Virus record (IMG/VR): IMGVR_UViG_2778261666_000010
Length of the DNA stretch: 24,201 nucleotides
Source: a virus
Taxonomy: Duplodnaviria; Heunggongvirae; Uroviricota; Caudoviricetes
Reading direction: 5' to 3' (one strand)
A program made the translations under genes and the position numbers. Below the pieces are notes generated by a model. That model was not told the DNA's origin. It did no database searches and saw only the letters and a list, made by a program, of their open reading frames with translations. Of this stretch, positions 7,603-19,330 are shown in pieces; position 1 is the first letter of the stretch, and every line of letters starts with the position of its first letter.

Positions 7603-8655
7603 TTAGCTGTCGGCGAACTTCAGGCCAGTGACCATCGCGCACTTGCCATAGTCTTCAACGACATAAGCGTCATTGATGGACTGGTAGGTGGCGATGCGGT
7701 TGTATTCCGGCTCGTCTTTCATCAGGCGACGCATTGTTCCTTTCTGCCAGTAAATTGACAGGTTGTTGAACGAGGTGATAAGCATCGTTGAATCCGGGAA
7801 GAACGGCGCAAGGAATACATCCAGCCCGCCAATGGCGCGCGATGACAGGATGAGCTGTCCGGCAAGTAATTCCGCATTGGGATTCTGGCCGCTGATGCTG
7901 TTCAGCACGGGCAGACGCAGCGAGTTAAACAGGTTGCGCCCCATAATCACCACGAGGTCGTCAGCTTCCTTGTGCCATTCATCCAGCAGGGATGAGCGCG
8001 CGTCCTGTACCAGAGCATCAGCGTTCGCATACTTACCCGCGTGCGCCACGGTGTTGTCCATGTTGCGGGAGGTCAGCGTCACGTCATTCATTACGCGCTC
8101 GCTGGCGTCGGTTCTGATGTGCTCCAGCCATCCCACGTTAACGTCCTGAAGCAGCTTGTTAGTGCTGAAGTTGGACTCATCTGCGTGAGACGTGCCGTTG
8201 AAACCGATCATGATGCGGTCAAGCGCCACCTGCCGGGCAATCTGTGTGCTGACGCGGGACTGAAAATCAGGGTGTGCCGCCCAGGCATCAAGCTGCGGAT
8301 ACGAAATAAACGTGTCGTAGTTCACCTGTTCGCACTGATATTTGCGGTTTTTCAGATCAACCACGTTATTCGGGTTACGGCGTTTTGTGCCGTCATAACT
8401 GGTATTCGTGCGCGCAATCGGCCCGGTGGTGTCCAGGAGGATTTTTTCGCCTTTCTGGTCGGTCACACCGAACACGTTAATTTTTTTTGTAAATTCGGTG
8501 CTTTCCTTTACTGCGTTTTCAAAACGCTGCTGCACCGAGGGTTCCACGGTAAATCGCGATACCAGTGCAGATACCGGGATGTTGTTAAGCGACGCCTGCT
8601 GCGCCATATAGCAACCCAGCTTGTTGCGGGTAATATCTGACATCACCAGATTCAT
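7603..8655 (-). CDS. N: Major capsid protein (P2 gpN-like)
   Basis: 350 aa; shares ...FTVEPSV... and the overall pattern of P2 N from memory; ATG 8655 with AAGGAG upstream. Confidence 0.9.
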   Translation of the reverse strand: MNLVMSDITRNKLGCYMAQQASLNNIPVSALVSRFTVEPSVQQRFENAVKESTEFTKKINVFGVTDQKGEKILLDTTGPIARTNTSYDGTKRRNPNNVVDLKNRKYQCEQVNYDTFISYPQLDAWAAHPDFQSRVSTQIARQVALDRIMIGFNGTSHADESNFSTNKLLQDVNVGWLEHIRTDASERVMNDVTLTSRNMDNTVAHAGKYANADALVQDARSSLLDEWHKEADDLVVIMGRNLFNSLRLPVLNSISGQNPNAELLAGQLILSSRAIGGLDVFLAPFFPDSTMLITSFNNLSIYWQKGTMRRLMKDEPEYNRIATYQSINDAYVVEDYGKCAMVTGLKFADS

Positions 8656-9669: not shown

Positions 9670-11421
9670 ATGATTCAGGACGCTTTTGTGCGCCAGCGTG
9701 CGCGACAACTTTACTGGCAGGGTTATCCGCCCGCTGAAATATCACGTCTGATGGGAATAAACCCGAACACGATTTATGCGTGGAAAAAACGCGACCAGTG
9801 GGATGAAACGCCACCCGTGCAGCGTGTCACGCAGTCCATCGATGCGCGCCTCATCCAGCTTACTGAAAAACAGAATAAAACAGGCGGTGACTTTAAGGAA
9901 ATAGACCTGCTGACCCGGCAGCTTAAAAAACTGCATGATGGCCAGCCGGATGCGACGGCCACAGGAAAGAAAGGCCGGGCGAAAAAACTCAAAAATCATT
10001 TCACGCCGGAACAGATTGCCGCACTGCGGGAAAAAATCATCAGCAGGCTGGAGTGGCATCAGCGGGGCTGGTTTGACTCCCTGACCCTTTGCAGGGAAGC
10101 CGGGATACGTAACAGGATGATCCTGAAATCCCGACAGATTGGGGCGACCTGGTATTTTGCACAGGAAGCACTGCTGATGGCGCTGCGTGACGATGTGGCG
10201 CAACCTTACCAGCGTAACCAGATTTTTTTGTCTGCGTCGCGTCGTCAGGCGTTCCAGTTTAAAAGCATTATTCAGAAGGCCGCGGCTGAAGTTGATGTGG
10301 AGCTGAAAGGGGGCGATAAAATCATCCTCTCCAACGGCGCAGAGCTGCATTTTCTCGGCACTTCTGCTGCGTCGGCACAGTCCTATACGGGCAATTTTTA
10401 TTTTGATGAATTTTTCTGGGTCAGTCGCTTTGCTGAACTGCGCAAGGTGGCTGGCGCTATGGCAACCCTCAGCGGACTGCGGCGCACCTACTTCTCCACG
10501 CCATCCACCGAAACGCACGAGGCATACGCCTACTGGAACGGCGACCGCTGGAATGAGAAAAAGGCCTCGCATAAACGCCAGCGTTTTTCTGTGGACTGGA
10601 AAACGCTGCATAACGGGCTTATCTGCCCTGACCGGACGTGGCGGCAAATTGTCACGCTGGAAGATGTGGTTAATCACGGCTGGAAACACACTGATATCGA
10701 CGAAATTCGTGATGAAAACACCGAAGACGAGTTCCTCAATCTCTATATGTGTGAGTTTGTCCGCGAAGGGGAATCGGCATTTAACCTGAATATCCTGATT
10801 GGCTGCGGTGTTGACGGATACGACGACTGGAAAGACTGGAAACCTTTTGCTCCCCGCCCGATGGGGAATCGTCCGGTATGGATTGGGTATGACGCAAACG
10901 GCAGTAGTGGCAACGGCGACAGCGGCGCTGTGTCCGTGGTGGTTCCTCCGGCTGTTCCTGGTGGCCGTTTTCGAACGGTGGAGACGCGACGCGTTCAGGG
11001 GCTGGAGTTTGAAGAACAGGCCAGAGTCATTGAAGAGTTCACGTATCGCTACAACGTGGAACACATCGGCATTGATGTGACGGGCGGGAACGGGGAGGCT
11101 GTTTATCAGATAGTGAAACGGTTTTTCCCTGCTGCTATTCCGTACACCTTCACGCTGTCATCAAAACGGTCGCTGGTACTGAAAATGCTGCAAATAATGC
11201 GTGCCGGGCGGTGGGAATACGATCGCGCCGAACGCGAGCTGGTCGCGGCCTTTAACGCCGTGCGTAAGGTGAAAACACCGGGCGGCTTTATCACTTACGA
11301 AACGGACCGCGCGAGGGGGATCAGCCACGGCGACCTTGCGTGGGCAACCATGCTTGCTGTCATTAACGAACCGATTGGCGGCGAAGGAGAAAACGAGCGT
11401 TTCACGGTTATGGAGTTCTGA
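9670..11421 (+). CDS. P: Terminase large (ATPase) subunit (P2 gpP-like)
   Basis: 583 aa; ATG 9670 preceded by GGGGGAG; N-terminal HTH-like segment (YWQGYPPAEISRLMGINPNTIYAWKKRDQWDE); stop overlaps the portal start. Confidence 0.9.
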   Translation: MIQDAFVRQRARQLYWQGYPPAEISRLMGINPNTIYAWKKRDQWDETPPVQRVTQSIDARLIQLTEKQNKTGGDFKEIDLLTRQLKKLHDGQPDATATGKKGRAKKLKNHFTPEQIAALREKIISRLEWHQRGWFDSLTLCREAGIRNRMILKSRQIGATWYFAQEALLMALRDDVAQPYQRNQIFLSASRRQAFQFKSIIQKAAAEVDVELKGGDKIILSNGAELHFLGTSAASAQSYTGNFYFDEFFWVSRFAELRKVAGAMATLSGLRRTYFSTPSTETHEAYAYWNGDRWNEKKASHKRQRFSVDWKTLHNGLICPDRTWRQIVTLEDVVNHGWKHTDIDEIRDENTEDEFLNLYMCEFVREGESAFNLNILIGCGVDGYDDWKDWKPFAPRPMGNRPVWIGYDANGSSGNGDSGAVSVVVPPAVPGGRFRTVETRRVQGLEFEEQARVIEEFTYRYNVEHIGIDVTGGNGEAVYQIVKRFFPAAIPYTFTLSSKRSLVLKMLQIMRAGRWEYDRAERELVAAFNAVRKVKTPGGFITYETDRARGISHGDLAWATMLAVINEPIGGEGENERFTVMEF

Positions 11422-12467
11422 TGAGCAGAAAAAACAAAAAAGTGCGCATGAGTTCACGCATTGATCTCGCTGATGCGCTCAGGAAAGAATCATCGCTCAG
11501 TGCATTCACATTTGATGGTCCTTATCGCCTGACCGGGCATGACCTGCTGGACAATATGTACTGTGCTGATAACGGGCGGTGGTATGAAACCCCGGTGGAC
11601 TGGTACGGTCTGGCAAGAGCAGCCCGGCAAACGTCCTGGCATCAGTCTGCGCTTTACTTTAAGCGTAATGTATTGCTCGGTTGCTATATTCCGCACCCGC
11701 TGCTTTCCCGGCAGGATTTCTCGGCGCTGGCGCTGGACTGGTTTGTGTTCGGTAACGCATTCCTTGAGCTTCGAAGCAATATGCTCGGCGAACCACTTAA
11801 ATTACGGCACACCCTGGCGAAATACATGCGACGCGGAAGCGATCTTGAATCATGGTGGTATGTGCAGGATGGCAAGGACGCGTTTCAGTTTCGCCCTGGC
11901 AAAGTGTGCCACCTGATGAATCCTGACATTAACCAGGAAATCTACGGCATGCCGGAATATCTCGGCGCATTACTCTCGGCCAGCCTGTCTCATTCGGCGG
12001 ACATGTTCAGAAAACTGTATTACGACAACGGCTCCCACGCCGGGTGCATCATCTACATCGGTGCAGCGCAGGTAAACCGCGAAAGCATGGACTCCCTGAA
12101 GGAAACGCTACAGGGTGCGCGTGGTGGTGGTGCATTTAAAAACGTGCTCATTCATGCGCCCAACGGGGGCAAAGAGGGGGTGCAAATTTTGCCGTTCCAG
12201 CAGATCACCGCAAAGGATGAGTTCATGAATGTTAAGGCGGCATCCCGTGATGATGTGCTGGCTGCGCACCGCGTTCCGCCGCAACTGATGGGGGCGATGC
12301 CGGGCGAAAAAAGTGCGTTTGGCGATGTGGAGAAGGCAGCGCGGGTTTACGCAATTAACGAGCTGATGCCCGTCATGGAGGCTATGAAGCACATCAATGA
12401 CTGGCTTGGCGAAGAGGTGATCCGTTTTAACTCTTATGCTCTTCTTGATGAAAAAACAGCCCCGTGA
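11421..12467 (+). CDS. Q: Portal protein (P2 gpQ-like)
   Basis: 348 aa, close to the 344 aa I recall for P2 Q; immediately downstream of the terminase, as in P2. Confidence 0.9.
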   Translation: MSRKNKKVRMSSRIDLADALRKESSLSAFTFDGPYRLTGHDLLDNMYCADNGRWYETPVDWYGLARAARQTSWHQSALYFKRNVLLGCYIPHPLLSRQDFSALALDWFVFGNAFLELRSNMLGEPLKLRHTLAKYMRRGSDLESWWYVQDGKDAFQFRPGKVCHLMNPDINQEIYGMPEYLGALLSASLSHSADMFRKLYYDNGSHAGCIIYIGAAQVNRESMDSLKETLQGARGGGAFKNVLIHAPNGGKEGVQILPFQQITAKDEFMNVKAASRDDVLAAHRVPPQLMGAMPGEKSAFGDVEKAARVYAINELMPVMEAMKHINDWLGEEVIRFNSYALLDEKTAP

Positions 12468-12483
12468 TGGGGCTGTCCTTTTT
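12456..12483. terminator. Bidirectional intrinsic terminator shared by convergent portal (plus) and orf174a (minus)
   Basis: 8-bp stem ACAGCCCC/GGGGCTGT (12456-12463 / 12469-12476) with loop GTGAT. Followed by a T-run on the plus strand (CCTTTTTA) and preceded by an A-run, giving a U-tract on the minus strand too. The portal stop lies in the loop; the orf174a stop lies in the T-run. Confidence 0.65.
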
Positions 12484-13006
12484 ACCAGAGTTGAACCATT
12501 TTCTGGGTGCCGTCAGGCTTGAGATTATCAATTTCAGAGAGAACGTAATATTGAATGGCTTCACAAACGGTGGTGTAGGGTGAATTACCTTCTTTAAGTG
12601 GCACGATATTATTATTAACGCGAACCTGTATTTCATCGTTATACATTGCGATCGAAACAGGAGTGTGCACGAACGCGACTTCGCCAGGTGTGTCGTCAAC
12701 CACCGTTTCAATACTAAAAGTCAGTTTTCGCTCATCATTGCTGCCCCGTGCTTTGGGGGTAGCGGCAGGGATCTGGGATAAAGGCATTCTGCGAAATCCT
12801 TCGGCTGCTTCCAGTCCGCATGAAACGTAATGCTGGCGATTACCGTCGCTATCTGTCCAGGTCTGTGATGGCAGCTCCAGCGAGATTTCATAAGCATCAA
12901 CAATGCCCTGGGCAAGGCGTACAAGCGGGGTCAGATCTTCATTGCGGCGAAAGCTCTCCTTTACCTGCTCCCGTTTTTCTCTTAACTGCTTGTAATTAAT
13001 GACCAT
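12482..13006 (-). CDS. Hypothetical protein (174 aa), accessory gene next to the portal
   Basis: Track start 13045 is GTG; ATG 13006 has a perfect GGAGG 7 nt upstream (MVINYKQLREKREQ...). Ends at the shared terminator. No motif I recognise. Visibly more AT-rich than the flanking structural genes. Confidence 0.6.
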   Translation of the reverse strand: MVINYKQLREKREQVKESFRRNEDLTPLVRLAQGIVDAYEISLELPSQTWTDSDGNRQHYVSCGLEAAEGFRRMPLSQIPAATPKARGSNDERKLTFSIETVVDDTPGEVAFVHTPVSIAMYNDEIQVRVNNNIVPLKEGNSPYTTVCEAIQYYVLSEIDNLKPDGTQKMVQLW

Positions 13007-13108
13007 AAAACAGCCTCCATTGATTTCTTTGCTCGTATTTTGCACTTATGAAGTATGGTCGGCAAGGTGCCGTATCGCTGACGCGCTTCGCTTGTCTGCT
13101 GCTTCGCC

Positions 13109-13131
13109 GGGGCATAAAAAATTTATGCCCC
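13109..13131. other. Perfect 10-bp-arm palindrome/hairpin
   Basis: GGGGCATAAA-AAA-TTTATGCCCC, about 100 bp upstream of the orf174a start; no flanking U-tract on either strand. Confidence 0.4.
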
Positions 13132-13505
13132 GACTCTCCAGCTCCTGTATCAATCAGATAATTTCACGACGCCTTCCAGCTTATTGTCATCATCGACGGT
13201 CAGGCTCTTACGCAATCCCGCCGTGCTGACTGCATGTTCTCGTCGCCTCAGTGCGATTTTGACGGCCTTATCAGTCACCCCATCAAATCAAAAGCCCTCA
13301 CGTATTTTTCACGCTCAGCGTGAGAAAGACAGCCATTCTGTTGTGTCGCTGCGACATCGTTCAGGGAATGCTATTTACCCCCTGAAACGCGGGCTGTTCC
13401 CCCGTCACCTGCGCGCAGAAAAAACGCGTTTTTTTGTGCACGCACGGATCCTTGACGGATCCAGCCGCCACGGGGGCCGGAAGGGCAAAAAGTCGTTCAA
13501 AAAAA

Positions 13506-13572: not shown

Positions 13573-14097
13573 TCAGGTGTTCTTTTTACCTTCTGTCAGT
13601 GGGCATAACCATCCACTATTTACATCACTTAGCTGATGCGTTCTTTCCTCGTGCTTCTCCTGCCACAATGCTTTTCCGCCAGCCTTTATGATGGCTCTTT
13701 CAACATCCCGCTCGTATCGCAAGGGCTGAAATACGTTATTAATGAAATATTCGCTTATGTCCGGAAGCAATACTGCAAAATTATTGGTTTGTTGCGCCGT
13801 TCGGCTATGCAGCAAAGCGGCATACTTTAATGCGTCCTGTGCTTTCTGGAATTTCAGTGCATGGTCAGTGGCGATTTTTTCCAGTTCAGCGATCCTGTTG
13901 TCTTTGGTTTCCAGCTCTTCCAGCAGCTCGGCGATAATGTCCATTTCCTGATGACGGATTTGACGCTTAAACGCCGCCACTGCTTCGCTACAATCCTGCT
14001 CAGCATTTGGGTTATCCGTGATGGCCTCATACCACGCCAGCGTCGATTGATAGTTTTGTGCTGCCTCACGTAATGCCTGATAGTTGATTTCGCTCAT
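13573..14097 (-). CDS. Hypothetical protein (174 aa), predicted alpha-helical/coiled-coil, downstream of parR
   Basis: ATG 14097 with AAGGAG upstream; a hairpin (14135-14152, CAGGGCGAACTCGCCCTG) separates it from parR; no recognisable motif. Confidence 0.6.
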   Translation of the reverse strand: MSEINYQALREAAQNYQSTLAWYEAITDNPNAEQDCSEAVAAFKRQIRHQEMDIIAELLEELETKDNRIAELEKIATDHALKFQKAQDALKYAALLHSRTAQQTNNFAVLLPDISEYFINNVFQPLRYERDVERAIIKAGGKALWQEKHEERTHQLSDVNSGWLCPLTEGKKNT

Positions 14098-14160: not shown

Positions 14161-14472
14161 TTATTCAGGAAATAACGCCCTGATATTTCTGGCCATCTGA
14201 CTGGTTATCTGTGCGGTTGGTACTGGCTGTGACTCGGGGCGTTCTGTCCTGGTTTGTGTCACTGATAACGTCTCATCGTCAGCCCATGCAGCCAGTCGGT
14301 AAGCCTCTGCCGGATTCATTTTCAGAAGTGCCAGCCCGGCCAGAAAAGCCACGCGTTGGCCGCTTTTGCGAGCTTCTGGTGTAAGGCTGTCCAGCCAGGC
14401 GCATGCTTCACCTTCGTTCTTGACGGCGGCGGGTTTCAGATAGAAACTTATCCGTCTGGTTGGTGTCGTCAT
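14161..14472 (-). CDS. parR: ParR-like centromere-binding adaptor (partition protein)
   Basis: Start moved to ATG 14472 (MTTPTRRISFYLKPAAVKNEGEACAWLDSLTPEARKSGQRVAFLAGLALLKMNP...), with AAGGAG upstream and overlapping the parM stop. Resembles the N-terminal ribbon-helix-helix region of plasmid R1 ParR (...RTIAFKLNPD...LDSIP...RAALTAGLALY...) from memory. The track's 45-residue N-terminal extension overlaps parM. Confidence 0.65.
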   Translation of the reverse strand: MTTPTRRISFYLKPAAVKNEGEACAWLDSLTPEARKSGQRVAFLAGLALLKMNPAEAYRLAAWADDETLSVTQTRTERPESQPVPTAQITSQMARNIRALFPE

Positions 14473-14476
14473 TGGT

Positions 14477-15436
14477 TTACTCCTTGTCCATTGCGTACAG
14501 CCCATTAACCAGAGCAAACTGTGGCACCCCGTCCGCGATGAAAGTCGCATTAACTCCGCAGGCTTCGCGGATAGCGGGTGCCACAATCTCCGCCCCGCCA
14601 CCGACAACCATCACCCGCCCGTAACCCGAAAAACCCGCCAGCGCGCGGATCACGCGTTGTTTCAGTGTTTCTTCCTTTTCACGAATAACCGCCATCAGGC
14701 TGGCGTAATGCGCGTCATTGTGGATGTGCTGGCGCAGCCAGGCTTCATCATGGCGATGTTCGATAATGGTATTGGCGATGTGGTGACTGGTACGCATACC
14801 GTTAGTGGCCATCACCGACAGTACGGCATCGGCCATCAGGGAAACGCCTACGTGTGGATCGCAAAACACCTGGCTGATACCTGCCAGTTGTCCCTGAACC
14901 TTTGCCACATCCAGCGTGGTTCCGCCCAAATCCACAATCAGCAGGGATTCAAACGGACTCATGTCAGCCAGTGCCTTAAAGCCAGCCGGAATGGATTCAG
15001 GCATAACCCGTACATTACGGATAGTGAATGCCTTACCGTTCTGGTACTCCACCGGGCGCATGACGTTCGCTTTTTTGCGGTTGATGTTGGCCATGTCCGG
15101 CTGTGCGTTTGTGTCGAAATACTCGCTCAGTGGCAGGGTGACAACCACATCCACTTCCTGTGGTGTGATGCCTGATTTGACCAGCGCGTGATGAATGGCA
15201 ATTACATTCACATCGCTGTACTGGTATTGCGTGTCGGTCGTCTGGACAAAGCGATCGCTGACCGGATCAAAACCATAGCGCACGCCATCAAGCATGTAGT
15301 TCGCGGGCTGCATGCCACCGAACGGCGCAGACCATTCCGATTTGAAGCTGTTCGGGCTGATGGCGTTGCGGCGTTCGCCGTTCTCAGTCCATGCCAGCTT
15401 GATGTTGGTGGAGCCGTCGTCGATACAAATTTTCAT
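14477..15436 (-). CDS. parM: ParM/StbA-like actin-type segregation ATPase
   Basis: 319 aa, collinear with plasmid R1 ParM as I recall it (MKICIDDGSTNIKLAW..ISPNSFK..YSDVNV..HHAL..RKKAN..VMPESIPAG..DLGGTTLD..GVSL..GGGAEIV..LVNG), including phosphate-1, phosphate-2 and adenosine motifs of the actin fold. Confidence 0.85.
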   Translation of the reverse strand: MKICIDDGSTNIKLAWTENGERRNAISPNSFKSEWSAPFGGMQPANYMLDGVRYGFDPVSDRFVQTTDTQYQYSDVNVIAIHHALVKSGITPQEVDVVVTLPLSEYFDTNAQPDMANINRKKANVMRPVEYQNGKAFTIRNVRVMPESIPAGFKALADMSPFESLLIVDLGGTTLDVAKVQGQLAGISQVFCDPHVGVSLMADAVLSVMATNGMRTSHHIANTIIEHRHDEAWLRQHIHNDAHYASLMAVIREKEETLKQRVIRALAGFSGYGRVMVVGGGAEIVAPAIREACGVNATFIADGVPQFALVNGLYAMDKE

Positions 15437-15468: not shown

Positions 15469-15580
15469 TTACGGGATTTTTAAATCCCGCTTTTGCCTGT
15501 TTTGTGCGCGCTTCATATTTCGCGGCGCTTTTTTTGCTCATTTACGGGATTTGTGAATCCCGTTTCTGTCTGTTTTTTGT
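15469..15580. repeat. Two ~38-bp direct repeats, each with an internal hairpin and T-rich tail, straddling the gene A stop and the parM upstream region
   Basis: Copy A 15469-15506 (TTACGGGATTTTTAAATCCCGCTTTTGCCTGTTTTGTG) and copy B 15542-15580 (TTACGGGATTTGTGAATCCCGTTTCTGTCTGTTTTTTGT); copy B lies inside the last ~23 codons of gene A. Confidence 0.6.
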
Positions 15581-18335
15581 TCCCACGGGTCAGGCCACCC
15601 CGCAGCAGGTCTGCTTTGCGGTGGGCGCGTTCAGTGGTTTCACTGATTCTCTGTGCGTGCTCTGCGTCACGGATGGCGCGCAGCATGTCAGAAAGCACGG
15701 TAACGGGTGTCTTCATGGTGTTCTGGTCTTGCTGAAGTGTGGATGCCAGGCGTGCGGCGGCTTCGGGGTCTGATGCCCCTAGCTGTTCCAGATAGCTGGC
15801 GACCGGGTTATGGCGGATCTCCGTGCTGCTTACGCCGTGATTACGGCTCAGGCGCTGCCAGAGCTGCGTGATTCGGCTGTCCGGTCGGGTATCTGGTTTG
15901 CGTACAATTTCAAATCCCTGCGGTGCAATGATGCTGCCGTCAACGTACAGACTGCCGCCCCGTAACAGGTGCAGCATCTGTTGTTCACCGATATGCAGGC
16001 CGAGAGATTCGGCAGACTCCCGCCATTCTTTAGCGAGTAACTCGTGGTTATCAGGCAAAGGTCGCGGCTGTTTGCGGCTCTGTGTCCAGTTCTGCATTTC
16101 ATCGCTGCTGTTTTTTGCCTGTTTGTCACGAAGCGAACGCATCAGCGCCCGGCGTTCGTGCCGTTTCAGTGAGCGCATCCATTCATTTACTTCAACGCCG
16201 TCAGGAAGCTGCGGCCACGGTGCTGGCCGTTCTTCCGGCTGTTCTGTTCCGTTGTTGTTCGTTTCCTGTACACGGGGACAGTTATTGCCACGAGTCCAAG
16301 GGGCGGCAGGGCCGCCCTGAAGGTCAAAACCATTTTCGCGGGCGCTGTCTTCCGCTTCCGGTTTACGCCTTACCAGCTTCCAGTTATCCGGGTGCGTGCA
16401 CACGCGGGAAGACTCCCCGATGAGCGGCGACCAGATCCCGTAAATCTGTACACTCTGCTCGCCGTAATCGTTCAGTTCATCTGCGAGGTCGTAGGCGGTG
16501 CGAATCAGGTAGTCTTTACGTGGAACAAGTACGCCGCCCTGTTTTTCAATGTAGGAGGCAAAACACCCGGCATCGGCGGCAGCGAGTACCGCATCCATTG
16601 CGTCATCCTTCAGCCGTTGCGGGCCTTCCGGGTTGCGTGCCATCTGGCTGGCAAGGCGGCGCAGTTCACGCCACACCTGACGGGAGGGGATGCCAAAGAA
16701 CTGGAACTGGCGGACCCGATGAAGGCGCGCCCAGCCGATGGCGCGCTCCACGCTCTCGGCCATTGATTTTCCGGTTTCGTGGTCAACGCGTGGTTTGCCC
16801 GTTTTCGGGTCGATTCCATCCACGGCGCGGCTGTCCAGGTTTTTTCCGATGTAGGTGGCGATGTAGCTGGTTGGCGTGCCTTTGGAGCCGTCGACGTACT
16901 CCACCTTAAAGCGCGGAGTAATATCATTGCCCAGCTCGTGGCGGTCTTCCTGAATGGCAATATCGCGGGTGATGGCCACGATGCTGTCGATTTCTTCTGG
17001 ATGAGCAAAGACCATCATATGCCAGTGCACGGTGCCGTCATGGTGAGGCTCCACCGTGCGGATGCCATACCAGCGCAGGCCGTCGCGGTTCAGTTTCTTG
17101 CGGACCGCCGCAAAAAACGTGTTAACCAGGTAATCGCTGGAGTCGCGCATGGTGGCCCCGTTCCATTTGGGATTCGGATGACCGTTCTCTGTTGTGGCGT
17201 GGTATTTTGACGGGCAGGTGACAGTCAGAAACACCGCTTTGTCGCCACGGGCTTCGGCTAGAAGTTCCAGCCCCTTCATGGTGGCCATCATTTCTGCCTT
17301 ACGGTGAACCGGGTTACTTACTCCCGCGTAATACACTGTCTCAAGATCAATCGTGAAGCCGTCTTCGTTTTCCAGTTCGAAGCTCTTCAGGAAGTCGCGG
17401 GTTTTCTCGCGCTGTGCGCGAAACTCGCTTAACGCGTCCTGGCTCAGATAGGGTGATGTTTTTCTGGAAACCAGACAGGCGGCACGGAGCTGTTCTTCCC
17501 GCCACTCGCAACGTAAAAGCCACAGTTTGTGTTTCCACCATTCCGCACAGGTCAGGCGAAGGATGGCACCCGGCAGCAGCTCCGTATTCAGTGCGTTCTT
17601 CCGGTCTTTGTCCGTTCTCAGTGCTTCGTAATGCGGCGGCATGGTGTGCAGATGTAACGCCATGCGGGCCAGCATCTGATACGCCTTCAGCGCAATTTTC
17701 ATGGTCAGCTCGCCATCGGTCGCGCCAAAGTTATCGCAGAGTGTTTCGAAAGTGCTGCTGAACATCGCCGCCGTCATGGTGGCCAGCGTCTGTATCTGGT
17801 GTTTGTTGAGCTGCGGCAGGTAAAGCAAATCGTCCAGGCGTTCGCGTCCGGCAAGGGAGCAATAACACGGTGTCAGCCAGCGTCCGTCAGTGCGATCCAG
17901 ACGTTCGAATATTTTGCGCAGGGTTCCGCGTGCATAGCGTTCCGCCTGCCAGCTCTTTTTGCCTTTCCGGCGATCGGCTTCCTGTTTTTTGCGCAGGAAG
18001 GAGAGGTGGCGAATAAGCGGATCGCGCAGATAGGACGGCAGCAGGCGGAGCGAGGCCATGGCTTCATCCACCGCGCCGCGTGCCTGTTTTCTGGCGTCTC
18101 CTGTCAGTGTGATGGTTTTGTCCTGTTTTTCCTGTGCGTCCAGGCTTTTATTAATCAGGTTGCCCAGCGGCGTGGCGGAGAACGCCGCATCAGCCATTTC
18201 CTGGCGGCGCTCGTTCTCTGCCCGGTAGGCATCCAGCCAGGAGGAAAGCGCGGATTCAGGAGCGGGGATCCCCGTTCCTTCACGCCCCACTGCGTGGCGC
18301 GGTTGTTGCCAGTCCCTGATGTACTCTGCCGTCAT
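15513..18335 (-). CDS. A: Replication initiation endonuclease (P2 gpA-like, rolling-circle HUH family)
   Basis: 940 aa, ATG 18335; metal-binding motif EPHHDGTVHWHMMVF and downstream tyrosine region (...TSYIATYIGKN...). Longer than the ~761 aa I recall for P2 A. Confidence 0.85.
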   Translation of the reverse strand: MTAEYIRDWQQPRHAVGREGTGIPAPESALSSWLDAYRAENERRQEMADAAFSATPLGNLINKSLDAQEKQDKTITLTGDARKQARGAVDEAMASLRLLPSYLRDPLIRHLSFLRKKQEADRRKGKKSWQAERYARGTLRKIFERLDRTDGRWLTPCYCSLAGRERLDDLLYLPQLNKHQIQTLATMTAAMFSSTFETLCDNFGATDGELTMKIALKAYQMLARMALHLHTMPPHYEALRTDKDRKNALNTELLPGAILRLTCAEWWKHKLWLLRCEWREEQLRAACLVSRKTSPYLSQDALSEFRAQREKTRDFLKSFELENEDGFTIDLETVYYAGVSNPVHRKAEMMATMKGLELLAEARGDKAVFLTVTCPSKYHATTENGHPNPKWNGATMRDSSDYLVNTFFAAVRKKLNRDGLRWYGIRTVEPHHDGTVHWHMMVFAHPEEIDSIVAITRDIAIQEDRHELGNDITPRFKVEYVDGSKGTPTSYIATYIGKNLDSRAVDGIDPKTGKPRVDHETGKSMAESVERAIGWARLHRVRQFQFFGIPSRQVWRELRRLASQMARNPEGPQRLKDDAMDAVLAAADAGCFASYIEKQGGVLVPRKDYLIRTAYDLADELNDYGEQSVQIYGIWSPLIGESSRVCTHPDNWKLVRRKPEAEDSARENGFDLQGGPAAPWTRGNNCPRVQETNNNGTEQPEERPAPWPQLPDGVEVNEWMRSLKRHERRALMRSLRDKQAKNSSDEMQNWTQSRKQPRPLPDNHELLAKEWRESAESLGLHIGEQQMLHLLRGGSLYVDGSIIAPQGFEIVRKPDTRPDSRITQLWQRLSRNHGVSSTEIRHNPVASYLEQLGASDPEAAARLASTLQQDQNTMKTPVTVLSDMLRAIRDAEHAQRISETTERAHRKADLLRGGLTRGNKKQTETGFTNPVNEQKKRREI

Positions 18336-19010: not shown

Positions 19011-19188
19011 GGTGTGGCCTCTTTGCTAGTAAGTTTTAAAAACTCACCATCCAGAGGTGGAAAACTCGGGGTGGTGAGACGTACAGGGTTTCCACAACCG
19101 GCTAGCAAAGAACCCGGCCCGACCGAAGTCGGCCCCATACGCCCCACCATAATTCGTGTGCGAAAAAGACGTGGCGATACGGTACGCA

Positions 19189-19210
19189 CAAAAAAACCGC
19201 TGGCGCGGTT
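19189..19210 (-). terminator. Candidate intrinsic terminator (minus strand) inside the early region
   Basis: Minus-strand RNA would read AACCGC-GCCA-GCGGUU followed by UUUUUU; short GC stem, moderate strength. Confidence 0.4.
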
Positions 19211-19330
19211 GTGCGCTTTGCTAGTCAGCGGGGTGGAAATCCCGGCACCCGTTTTATGAGGTGCAGCGGAAATGTAACCTGACTGATTGCGGCATGGCAA
19301 GCGGTTTTTTTGTGTGTGCATGATGATTAC

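Follow-up and report, generated by a model that had tools for sequence, protein, structure and literature searches.

The subject of this report is a gene for a 174 amino acid protein, here called ORF174, that lies on the minus strand at 12482-13006 of a 24,201-nucleotide stretch of viral DNA (IMG/VR record IMGVR_UViG_2778261666_000010). That whole stretch is referred to below as the window, and coordinates are positions in it. By its sequence the window is a P88-like prophage (Xuanwuvirus, Peduoviridae, P2 family) of Escherichia coli, and ORF174 forms an autonomous, optional, single-gene cassette within it, one that is conserved across genomes and independent of the cargo genes in its neighbourhood. 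We are highly confident that this is a real stand-alone accessory cassette in a known phage hotspot. With much more reserve, though still leaning in favour, we propose that the cassette encodes a binding protein with a part in conflict between phages, or between phage and host. The evidence for the cassette is set out first, followed by an account of the protein family to which ORF174 belongs (phrog_5091) and of the roles that might be assigned to it.

An optional single-gene cassette at the portal stop codon

The extent of the cassette (12437..13073) is given by blastn comparison of the window with the related phages P88 (NC_026014), Chuche and P88_4B11. Homology to all three ends at 12436 and restarts at 13074, with 637 bp in the window replacing 24 bp in P88, equivalent to a clean insertion of ~613 bp at the portal stop codon. 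The inserted DNA comprises a new portal C-terminus with its stop codon, a terminator, ORF174 with its 5' untranslated region, and a putative promoter. The last residues of the portal protein are changed by the insertion, reading ...LLDEKTAP in the window versus ...LLDTQPTS in P88. Both junctions carry ...CTGACGCGCTTCGC, which on the cos side corresponds to the context of the portal stop in P88; the cos-side junction recurs in another E. coli allele, the product of which shares 56% identity with ORF174. ORF174 is absent from P2 as well as from P88, Chuche and P88_4B11.

The cassette is widespread in E. coli. Among 5426 complete genomes, 397 (~7%) carry it, at 401 places in all, each of them adjoining a gene annotated 'phage portal protein', and the matches include ST131, O55:H7 and O111. 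For the P88-type portal the corresponding figures are 1206 places and 1079 E. coli genomes, and comparison of the two place counts indicates that around one-third of P88-type loci are occupied. In P88-type E. coli prophages the sub-site on the portal side of cos is mostly empty or holds the family of ORF174 alone. On the gpA side of cos, the cargo varies among genomes whose ORF174 is identical or near-identical (at least 95%): an Ead/Ea22-like gene is present in the window, and the alternatives are a DUF4760 gene plus a hypothetical gene, a gene for a helix-turn-helix protein with a hypothetical beside it, a trio of small hypotheticals, or, in PhiR44_2, a longer run of genes. Because this cargo varies, ORF174 is likely to act alone or with core phage functions and not in a multi-gene system that includes these neighbours. 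Two plasmid matches were considered as a possible independent context, but this was rejected, as both are the same prophage within plasmid records.

Sequence comparison also speaks to the maintenance of the gene. Measured against alleles ~95% identical in DNA, the ratio of non-synonymous to synonymous substitution rates (dN/dS) of ORF174 is 0.066-0.078, which indicates strong purifying selection, and a 100% identical protein, annotated as hypothetical, is encoded by four deposited phage genomes. An absence of conservation had been named in an earlier note on this DNA as an outcome that would count against its reading of the gene; conservation is in fact strong, with dN/dS at ~0.07.

ORF174 has the signals expected of a well-formed gene. 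Its stop codon is TAA (12482-12484, minus strand), and the start codon can be assigned. A mechanical list of open reading frames includes a longer version of 187 amino acids that starts with GTG at 13045, but three considerations identify the ATG at 13006 as the real start: the spacing of the Shine-Dalgarno sequence, the RefSeq product (WP_000236495.1), which is identical to ORF174 and likewise 174 amino acids long, and the behaviour of the homologues, all of which start at the same methionine (MVINY, with M[TS]ITY among the more distant ones). The Shine-Dalgarno sequence, GGAGG (13014..13018, minus strand), lies 7 nt upstream of the ATG and is unchanged across all alleles inspected. Further upstream on the same strand are a putative -10 hexamer, CAAAAT (13037..13042), 30 nt from the ATG, and, across a 17-nt spacer, a putative -35 hexamer, TTGCCG (13060..13065), and the pair may act as a weak promoter of the sigma-70 type. 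Across ~30 E. coli alleles neither hexamer changes, nor does the Shine-Dalgarno sequence, while the spacer and the upstream bases vary; in Salmonella alleles encoding proteins ~60% identical, TTGTCT-17-CAAAAT is found equally far from the ATG. Neither a LexA-box-like element nor an Ogr-type element (TGT-N12-ACA) is present in the 260 nt upstream of the gene.

At its 3' end ORF174 converges on the portal gene, with 14 nt between the two stop codons. A terminator hairpin common to both genes, identified by terminator scan and folding, occupies 12456..12476 on both strands, with the portal TGA in its loop and T-runs on both sides. The predicted folding energies are -18.6 kcal/mol (plus strand) and -21.5 kcal/mol (minus strand), with z at ~ -5 and none of 200 shuffled sequences folding as well. 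The earlier note had described a perfect GGAGG sequence and a bidirectional terminator shared by convergent genes; both descriptions hold, the latter being fair because the hairpin folds and has T-runs on both strands. The G+C content of ORF174 (47.4%) is below that of the portal gene (53.2%), the large terminase gene (54.0%) and the window as a whole (53.4%).

The location of the cassette is one that has already attracted attention. The interval between gpA and gpQ is the cos-proximal variable hotspot of P2-like phages, also known as the old/tin locus (Rousset et al. 2022, PMC9122126), and the same interval has been termed 'P2 defence hotspot #1' (Vassallo et al. 2022, PMC9519451); it is further treated in PMC13586616 and in the iLund4u preprint. 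WP_000236495 is entered as 'hypothetical' in Table S5A of PMC9122126, with at least 167 occurrences. In the literature searched, no paper text was found that names the accession or the PHROG identifier, and no report of anti-phage activity or of testing of WP_000236495 was found. Since the hotspot is published and the protein is already catalogued as hypothetical, the observation is less unusual than it first appeared. ORF174 resembles the known cargo of the hotspot in lying between gpA (15513-18335) and gpQ and in being present or absent among collinear prophages. It differs in lying on the portal side of cos, whereas in P2 the gpA side is where old, tin and orf91 are found, and in that its sub-site holds one gene or is empty, not many alternative cargos. 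P2 itself has nothing between portal and cos that codes for protein, as the earlier note stated, there being only a terminator between Q (stop at 187) and cosL (1-19). To this extent the cassette is slightly unusual: it sits on the side of cos next to the portal, which is vacant in P2, in a sub-site that is occupied by one family or by none.

Where the packaged genome ends bears on this placement. Both ends of the linear P88_4B11 record (NC_049391) abut at 13487|13488, and for this reason cos probably lies there, within a cleavage region at 13469..13488 that would form the end of the packaged genome. The sequence at this position is rich in G, a property shared with the P2 cohesive end. The ATG of ORF174 is thus some 465-480 nt from the probable packaged end, much as had been supposed from the letters alone.

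Morons, in the concept of Hendrix and colleagues, are independent promoter-gene-terminator units found between the core genes of temperate phages. The ORF174 cassette resembles them in its precise boundary, its promoter-like hexamers, its terminator, its deviating G+C content and its absence from close relatives; homologues of ORF174 are found at other typical moron sites, and expression from the prophage is predicted. A moron position had been suggested in the earlier note, and the suggestion is borne out by an insert that is optional (about a third of P88-type loci) and has promoter-like hexamers and a terminator of its own as well as a lower G+C content.

The phrog_5091 family and its settings

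ORF174 is a member of phrog_5091 (E 1.4e-67, with residues 1-168 aligned to positions 1-164 of the 164-position profile). The likeness is full-length and no difference from the family was seen. phrog_5091 carries an unknown-function label, all of its source names being 'hypothetical protein', and brings no functional annotation with it. A word-indexed search recovered close enterobacterial relatives only. An exhaustive search with a hidden Markov model against 1.84 billion representative proteins returned 89 matches, ~80 of which are full-length proteins of 155-185 amino acids that are 21-32% identical to ORF174. When 63 aligned members were compared with the PHROG profiles, every one matched phrog_5091 and no other family. 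The source genera all belong to the Enterobacterales: Escherichia, Salmonella, Trabulsiella, Lelliottia, Serratia, Yersinia, Morganella, Providencia and Xenorhabdus.

Searches of Pfam, NCBIfam and PADLOC gave no match for ORF174, and Pfam gave none among the 63 aligned members. The family is soluble, with a median isoelectric point (pI) of 5.2 and a net charge of ~ -5; ORF174 itself has a pI of 5.0, no 20-residue hydrophobic stretch and no transmembrane segment. Small, soluble, mildly acidic proteins without a known domain are typical of the anti-defence proteins characterised so far. The conserved positions of the family are mostly aromatic or aliphatic (Y5, Y39, L43, L45, W50, Y60, F97), with some polar ones as well (S42, D52, G55, T101, D104/D105, together with K152, which is Q in ORF174), and among them there is no recognisable catalytic motif.

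An AlphaFold2 model built from a 63-sequence alignment, and driven by co-evolution, has a predicted local distance difference test score (pLDDT) of 90.6 and a predicted template modelling score (pTM) of 0.81. The predicted fold is of the alpha+beta type, with helices at residues 5-22 and 26-42, an antiparallel sheet spanning 49-135 and a C-terminal helix at 145-159, and a model built from 11 sequences has the same topology. Foldseek comparison of the model found nothing significant in the PDB (best E 0.39) or in BFVD (best E 0.045), and the family profile had no match among PDB sequences. Structural matches to NTF2-like proteins were seen but are weak, the best PDB match overall being the E 0.39 just mentioned. 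NTF2-like alpha+beta proteins include SnoaL, ketosteroid isomerase, the CaMKII hub, VirB8 and immunity proteins with this fold. A single-sequence match to designed helical-repeat proteins in the PDB (E 2.7e-7) was considered and rejected: it arises by adding up three repeat matches, each insignificant by itself (i-Evalue 2.4-35), and is an artefact that the family profile does not reproduce. The earlier note could assign no motif to the gene, and neither Pfam, NCBIfam, PADLOC nor the PDB yielded a detectable domain; the sensitive homology and structure searches that it proposed returned no structural or packaging protein.

Every readable genomic context of the family is a prophage or a viral contig. 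In P2-like prophages the homologue is again convergent with the portal gene in E. coli (56% identity), Salmonella (60-62%) and Morganella (23%), and in Trabulsiella it is found directly after gpA, beside HicB and Phd/Fic toxin-antitoxin genes. Outside the P2-like phages, in lambdoid phages and other myophages, more distant homologues occupy other typical accessory-gene sites and are oriented with the late genes. One such site is the interval between the Q antiterminator gene (sometimes with an HNH gene) and the holin gene, in Serratia, Morganella, phage CharmingMan and four viral contigs (L024, L026, L030 and L031); in Lelliottia and contig L027 the homologue has the lysis genes to one side and HNH/terminase to the other. 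In Xenorhabdus-type myophages the homologue is located between the tail chaperone and tape measure genes (L017, L023, L029, L032 and L033), and in two contigs it is found in baseplate clusters (L025 and L028). In Providencia (L083, 4300-6477) it follows a P22 immI-like mnt/arc/ant module and precedes baseplate genes, apparently co-oriented with arc-ant.

Several of these settings include neighbours that deserve mention in their own right. A Morganella P2-like prophage (L005) has a P22_AR_N antirepressor gene beside the homologue. In a Morganella lambdoid prophage (L081/L082), in which the homologue lies between HNH and holin genes, the lysis genes are followed by a gene (8159-8395) for an Acb2/Tad1-hairpin protein, a member of the anti-CBASS / anti-Thoeris sponge family. 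In one short contig the homologue adjoins an EcoRII-type restriction-modification pair.

Possible roles for ORF174

What might such a protein do? A role in phage or host conflict, in either direction, is probable; it is the best-supported role on account of the location of the gene and the presence of the family at accessory-gene sites. As a fuller statement, we favour, with limited confidence, a conflict-related binding protein produced from an accessory cassette. The cassette would consist of a weak sigma-70-type promoter, a strong ribosome-binding site, the single 174 amino acid gene and a two-way terminator, all inserted at the portal stop. Transcription is predicted to start from the cassette's own weak constitutive promoter, and the terminator shared with the portal gene would insulate ORF174 from late P-Q transcription. 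The product is predicted, from its conserved residues, to bind a target protein or ligand and not to act by catalysis; binding is preferred to enzymatic activity because those residues are mostly aromatic or hydrophobic, together with S42, D52, T101 and D104/D105.

As to the direction of the conflict, our first choice, a tentative one, is that ORF174 is specifically a defence or exclusion protein. The choice is guided by the precedents in the hotspot and by a gene orientation opposed to the late operon, a late-promoter element being absent. The protein, produced from the prophage, might then poison a superinfecting phage through one of its components, Tin-like in its action though unrelated to Tin. 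P2 Tin is a non-essential lysogenic-conversion protein that blocks the growth of T-even phages. Like ORF174, it is a single soluble protein of a P2-family prophage whose gene lies beside cos and is transcribed inward from the cos side, and we propose it as a functional analogue, by which ORF174 would bind and poison a component of a competing phage. Tin is, however, a protein of 253 amino acids that is co-transcribed with old, and it has no sequence relation to ORF174: comparison of the family profile with P2 Tin by hhalign gave a probability of 0.4% over 8 aligned columns. The same comparison with P2 Orf30 gave no relation.

A number of observations weigh against this interpretation. In PADLOC-DB v2.0.0 (5027 models) ORF174 has no match at E <= 1, and the 63 family members produced just two isolated matches, which at E ~0.005-0.009 are unconvincing. 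WP_000236495 was not found in the available supplementary files of PMC9519451, which describe a functional selection for E. coli defence systems. A single soluble protein of 174 amino acids that lacks any nuclease, NADase, membrane or NTPase module would be unusual for defence, and such a make-up is more usual among counter-defence inhibitors. The contexts examined are all prophage or phage, whereas many defence genes are also found outside phages, and the argument from hotspot location is one of guilt by association only. The proposed promoter, TTGCCG-17-CAAAAT, matches the consensus at 8 of 12 positions, which is below the threshold of the promoter scan, and was not called.

In an alternative, the protein works in the opposite direction, as a small inhibitor or signal 'sponge' that neutralises host immunity. 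Such counter-defence is, in our estimation, unlikely in itself, yet it comes a close second to defence. Synthesis of the protein would begin, from a constitutive promoter of the cassette, once the adjoining genome end has entered the cell, on the supposition that this end goes in first. Its size, solubility, acidity (median pI 5.2 and net charge -5 for the family) and want of any domain suit a role of this kind, as do the confinement of the family to phage and prophage contexts and the placement of ORF174 ~0.5 kb from the packaged genome end. Also in keeping with it are the position of the Providencia homologue, after an mnt/arc/ant module of the P22 immI-like type that is expressed early, and the Acb2/Tad1-hairpin gene at an accessory-gene site close to the homologue in the Morganella prophage, which demonstrates that such sites do hold anti-defence genes. 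Residues Y39, W50, Y60, F97, S42, D52, T101, D105 and K152, taken with the weak NTF2-like matches to the model, might fit a ligand pocket. The timing fits less well, however, since most of the distant homologues lie in late operons, after Q or among tail genes, where expression would come too late unless they have promoters of their own. Moreover, DefenseFinder anti-defence models, which cover known families only, reportedly find very few systems in P2-like prophages (PMC13586616).

Two further possibilities are less probable. The first, which we consider distinctly unlikely, is a lysogenic-conversion or regulatory factor that influences induction, the SOS response, host metabolism or fitness and is not directed at other phages. 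The moron layout and the frequency of the gene in human-associated and pathogenic lineages (ST131, O55:H7, O111) are compatible with this. The hotspot listing in Table S5A of PMC9122126 also includes DinI-family genes from other P2-like prophages, and regulators of host physiology therefore do occur in the region; as for a DinI-type gene beside a P2-type portal, the locus looked at was empty. ORF174 has, however, no DNA-binding, signalling or secretion motif, no signal peptide and no transmembrane segment, the family is not linked to virulence loci, and the evidence is circumstantial throughout. The second is that ORF174 is a virion, packaging or head-internal protein, for example one associated with cos or the portal, or a protective protein packaged in the particle, as P1 DarA is. 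A gene found beside portal and cos in several P2-like lineages, even where the protein is only 23% identical, and homologues inside tail or baseplate clusters could be explained in this way, but we regard the idea as very improbable indeed. P2, P88, Chuche and P88_4B11 are viable phages that lack the gene; it is opposed to the P-Q late operon and has no Ogr-type TGT-N12-ACA element upstream; its only PHROG match is phrog_5091, with no structural or packaging PHROG and no significant match in BFVD or the PDB; and the family occurs at very different positions in other types of phage.

A binding protein involved in conflict remains the explanation that we prefer. The interpretation offered in the earlier note is sound, and the feature itself is an ordinary one.

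Prophage surroundings and significance

The best DNA matches of the window are to phages vB_EcoM-569R5, 705R2, PhiR44_2 and P88. The portal gene that forms the conserved left flank of the cassette (11421..12467, plus strand) is the gpQ homologue (Pfam Phage_portal; phrog_68, E 7e-153), and it is directly preceded by the large terminase gene gpP (9670-11421, plus strand). Beyond ORF174, a conserved non-coding stretch of 460 bp leads to the Ead/Ea22-like open reading frame (13573-14097, minus strand; Pfam E 1.5e-15), which also encodes 174 amino acids and, on the gpA side of cos, makes up the variable cargo of this prophage. Next come genes for ParR and ParM (14161-15436, minus strand), a plasmid-type partition pair (StbA / Plasmid_stab_B) placed between gpA and cos, and then the gpA homologue (15513-18335, minus strand), which is annotated 'replication endonuclease' in collinear records. 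The ParM/ParR pair is apparently fixed in P88-like phages and raises the question of plasmid-like persistence.

The conserved stretch that separates the cassette from cos has features of its own. A candidate gene for 42 amino acids at 13150-13278 (minus strand) corresponds to hypothetical protein SF19_gp22 of P88, and is followed by a strong minus-strand hairpin, GGGGCATAAA...TTTATGCCCC (-24.5 kcal/mol), which has no T-run; the two together occupy the region 13108-13278. Immediately before the probable cos cleavage region, at 13446-13465, there is a direct repeat of GGATCC with the copies 5 nt apart (GGATCCTTGACGGATCC); the likeness of the neighbouring G-rich stretch to the P2 cohesive end is only loose. 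In the early or regulatory region, two Rfam matches above the gathering score lie side by side on the minus strand, at 19067-19154 and 19190-19264: the C4 antisense RNA (78.8 bits) and the Hfq-binding small RNA isrK (63.8 bits). In one ORF174-carrying P88-like prophage (L010, 1318-2118, from E. coli 4/1-1) the small terminase gene gpM is annotated as a pseudogene with an internal stop, and some carriers are therefore probably defective prophages in which ORF174 is still intact.

Viewed purely as a genomic observation, ORF174 is ordinary: one more hypothetical accessory gene, already catalogued, in a known hotspot. Its significance lies in the setting. P2-like prophages rank among the commonest in E. 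coli, many immune systems have come from their cos-proximal hotspot, and few uncharacterised passengers of the hotspot are as frequent as ORF174, which ~7% of complete E. coli genomes carry. Being common, self-contained and under selection, with a confidently predicted fold that has no solved relative, it is a cheap and well-defined candidate for screening. It is quite possible, if short of probable, that phrog_5091 represents an unrecognised family of single-protein immune modulators of temperate enterobacterial phages, whose members would act either as domain-less exclusion factors or as counter-defence inhibitors or sponges.

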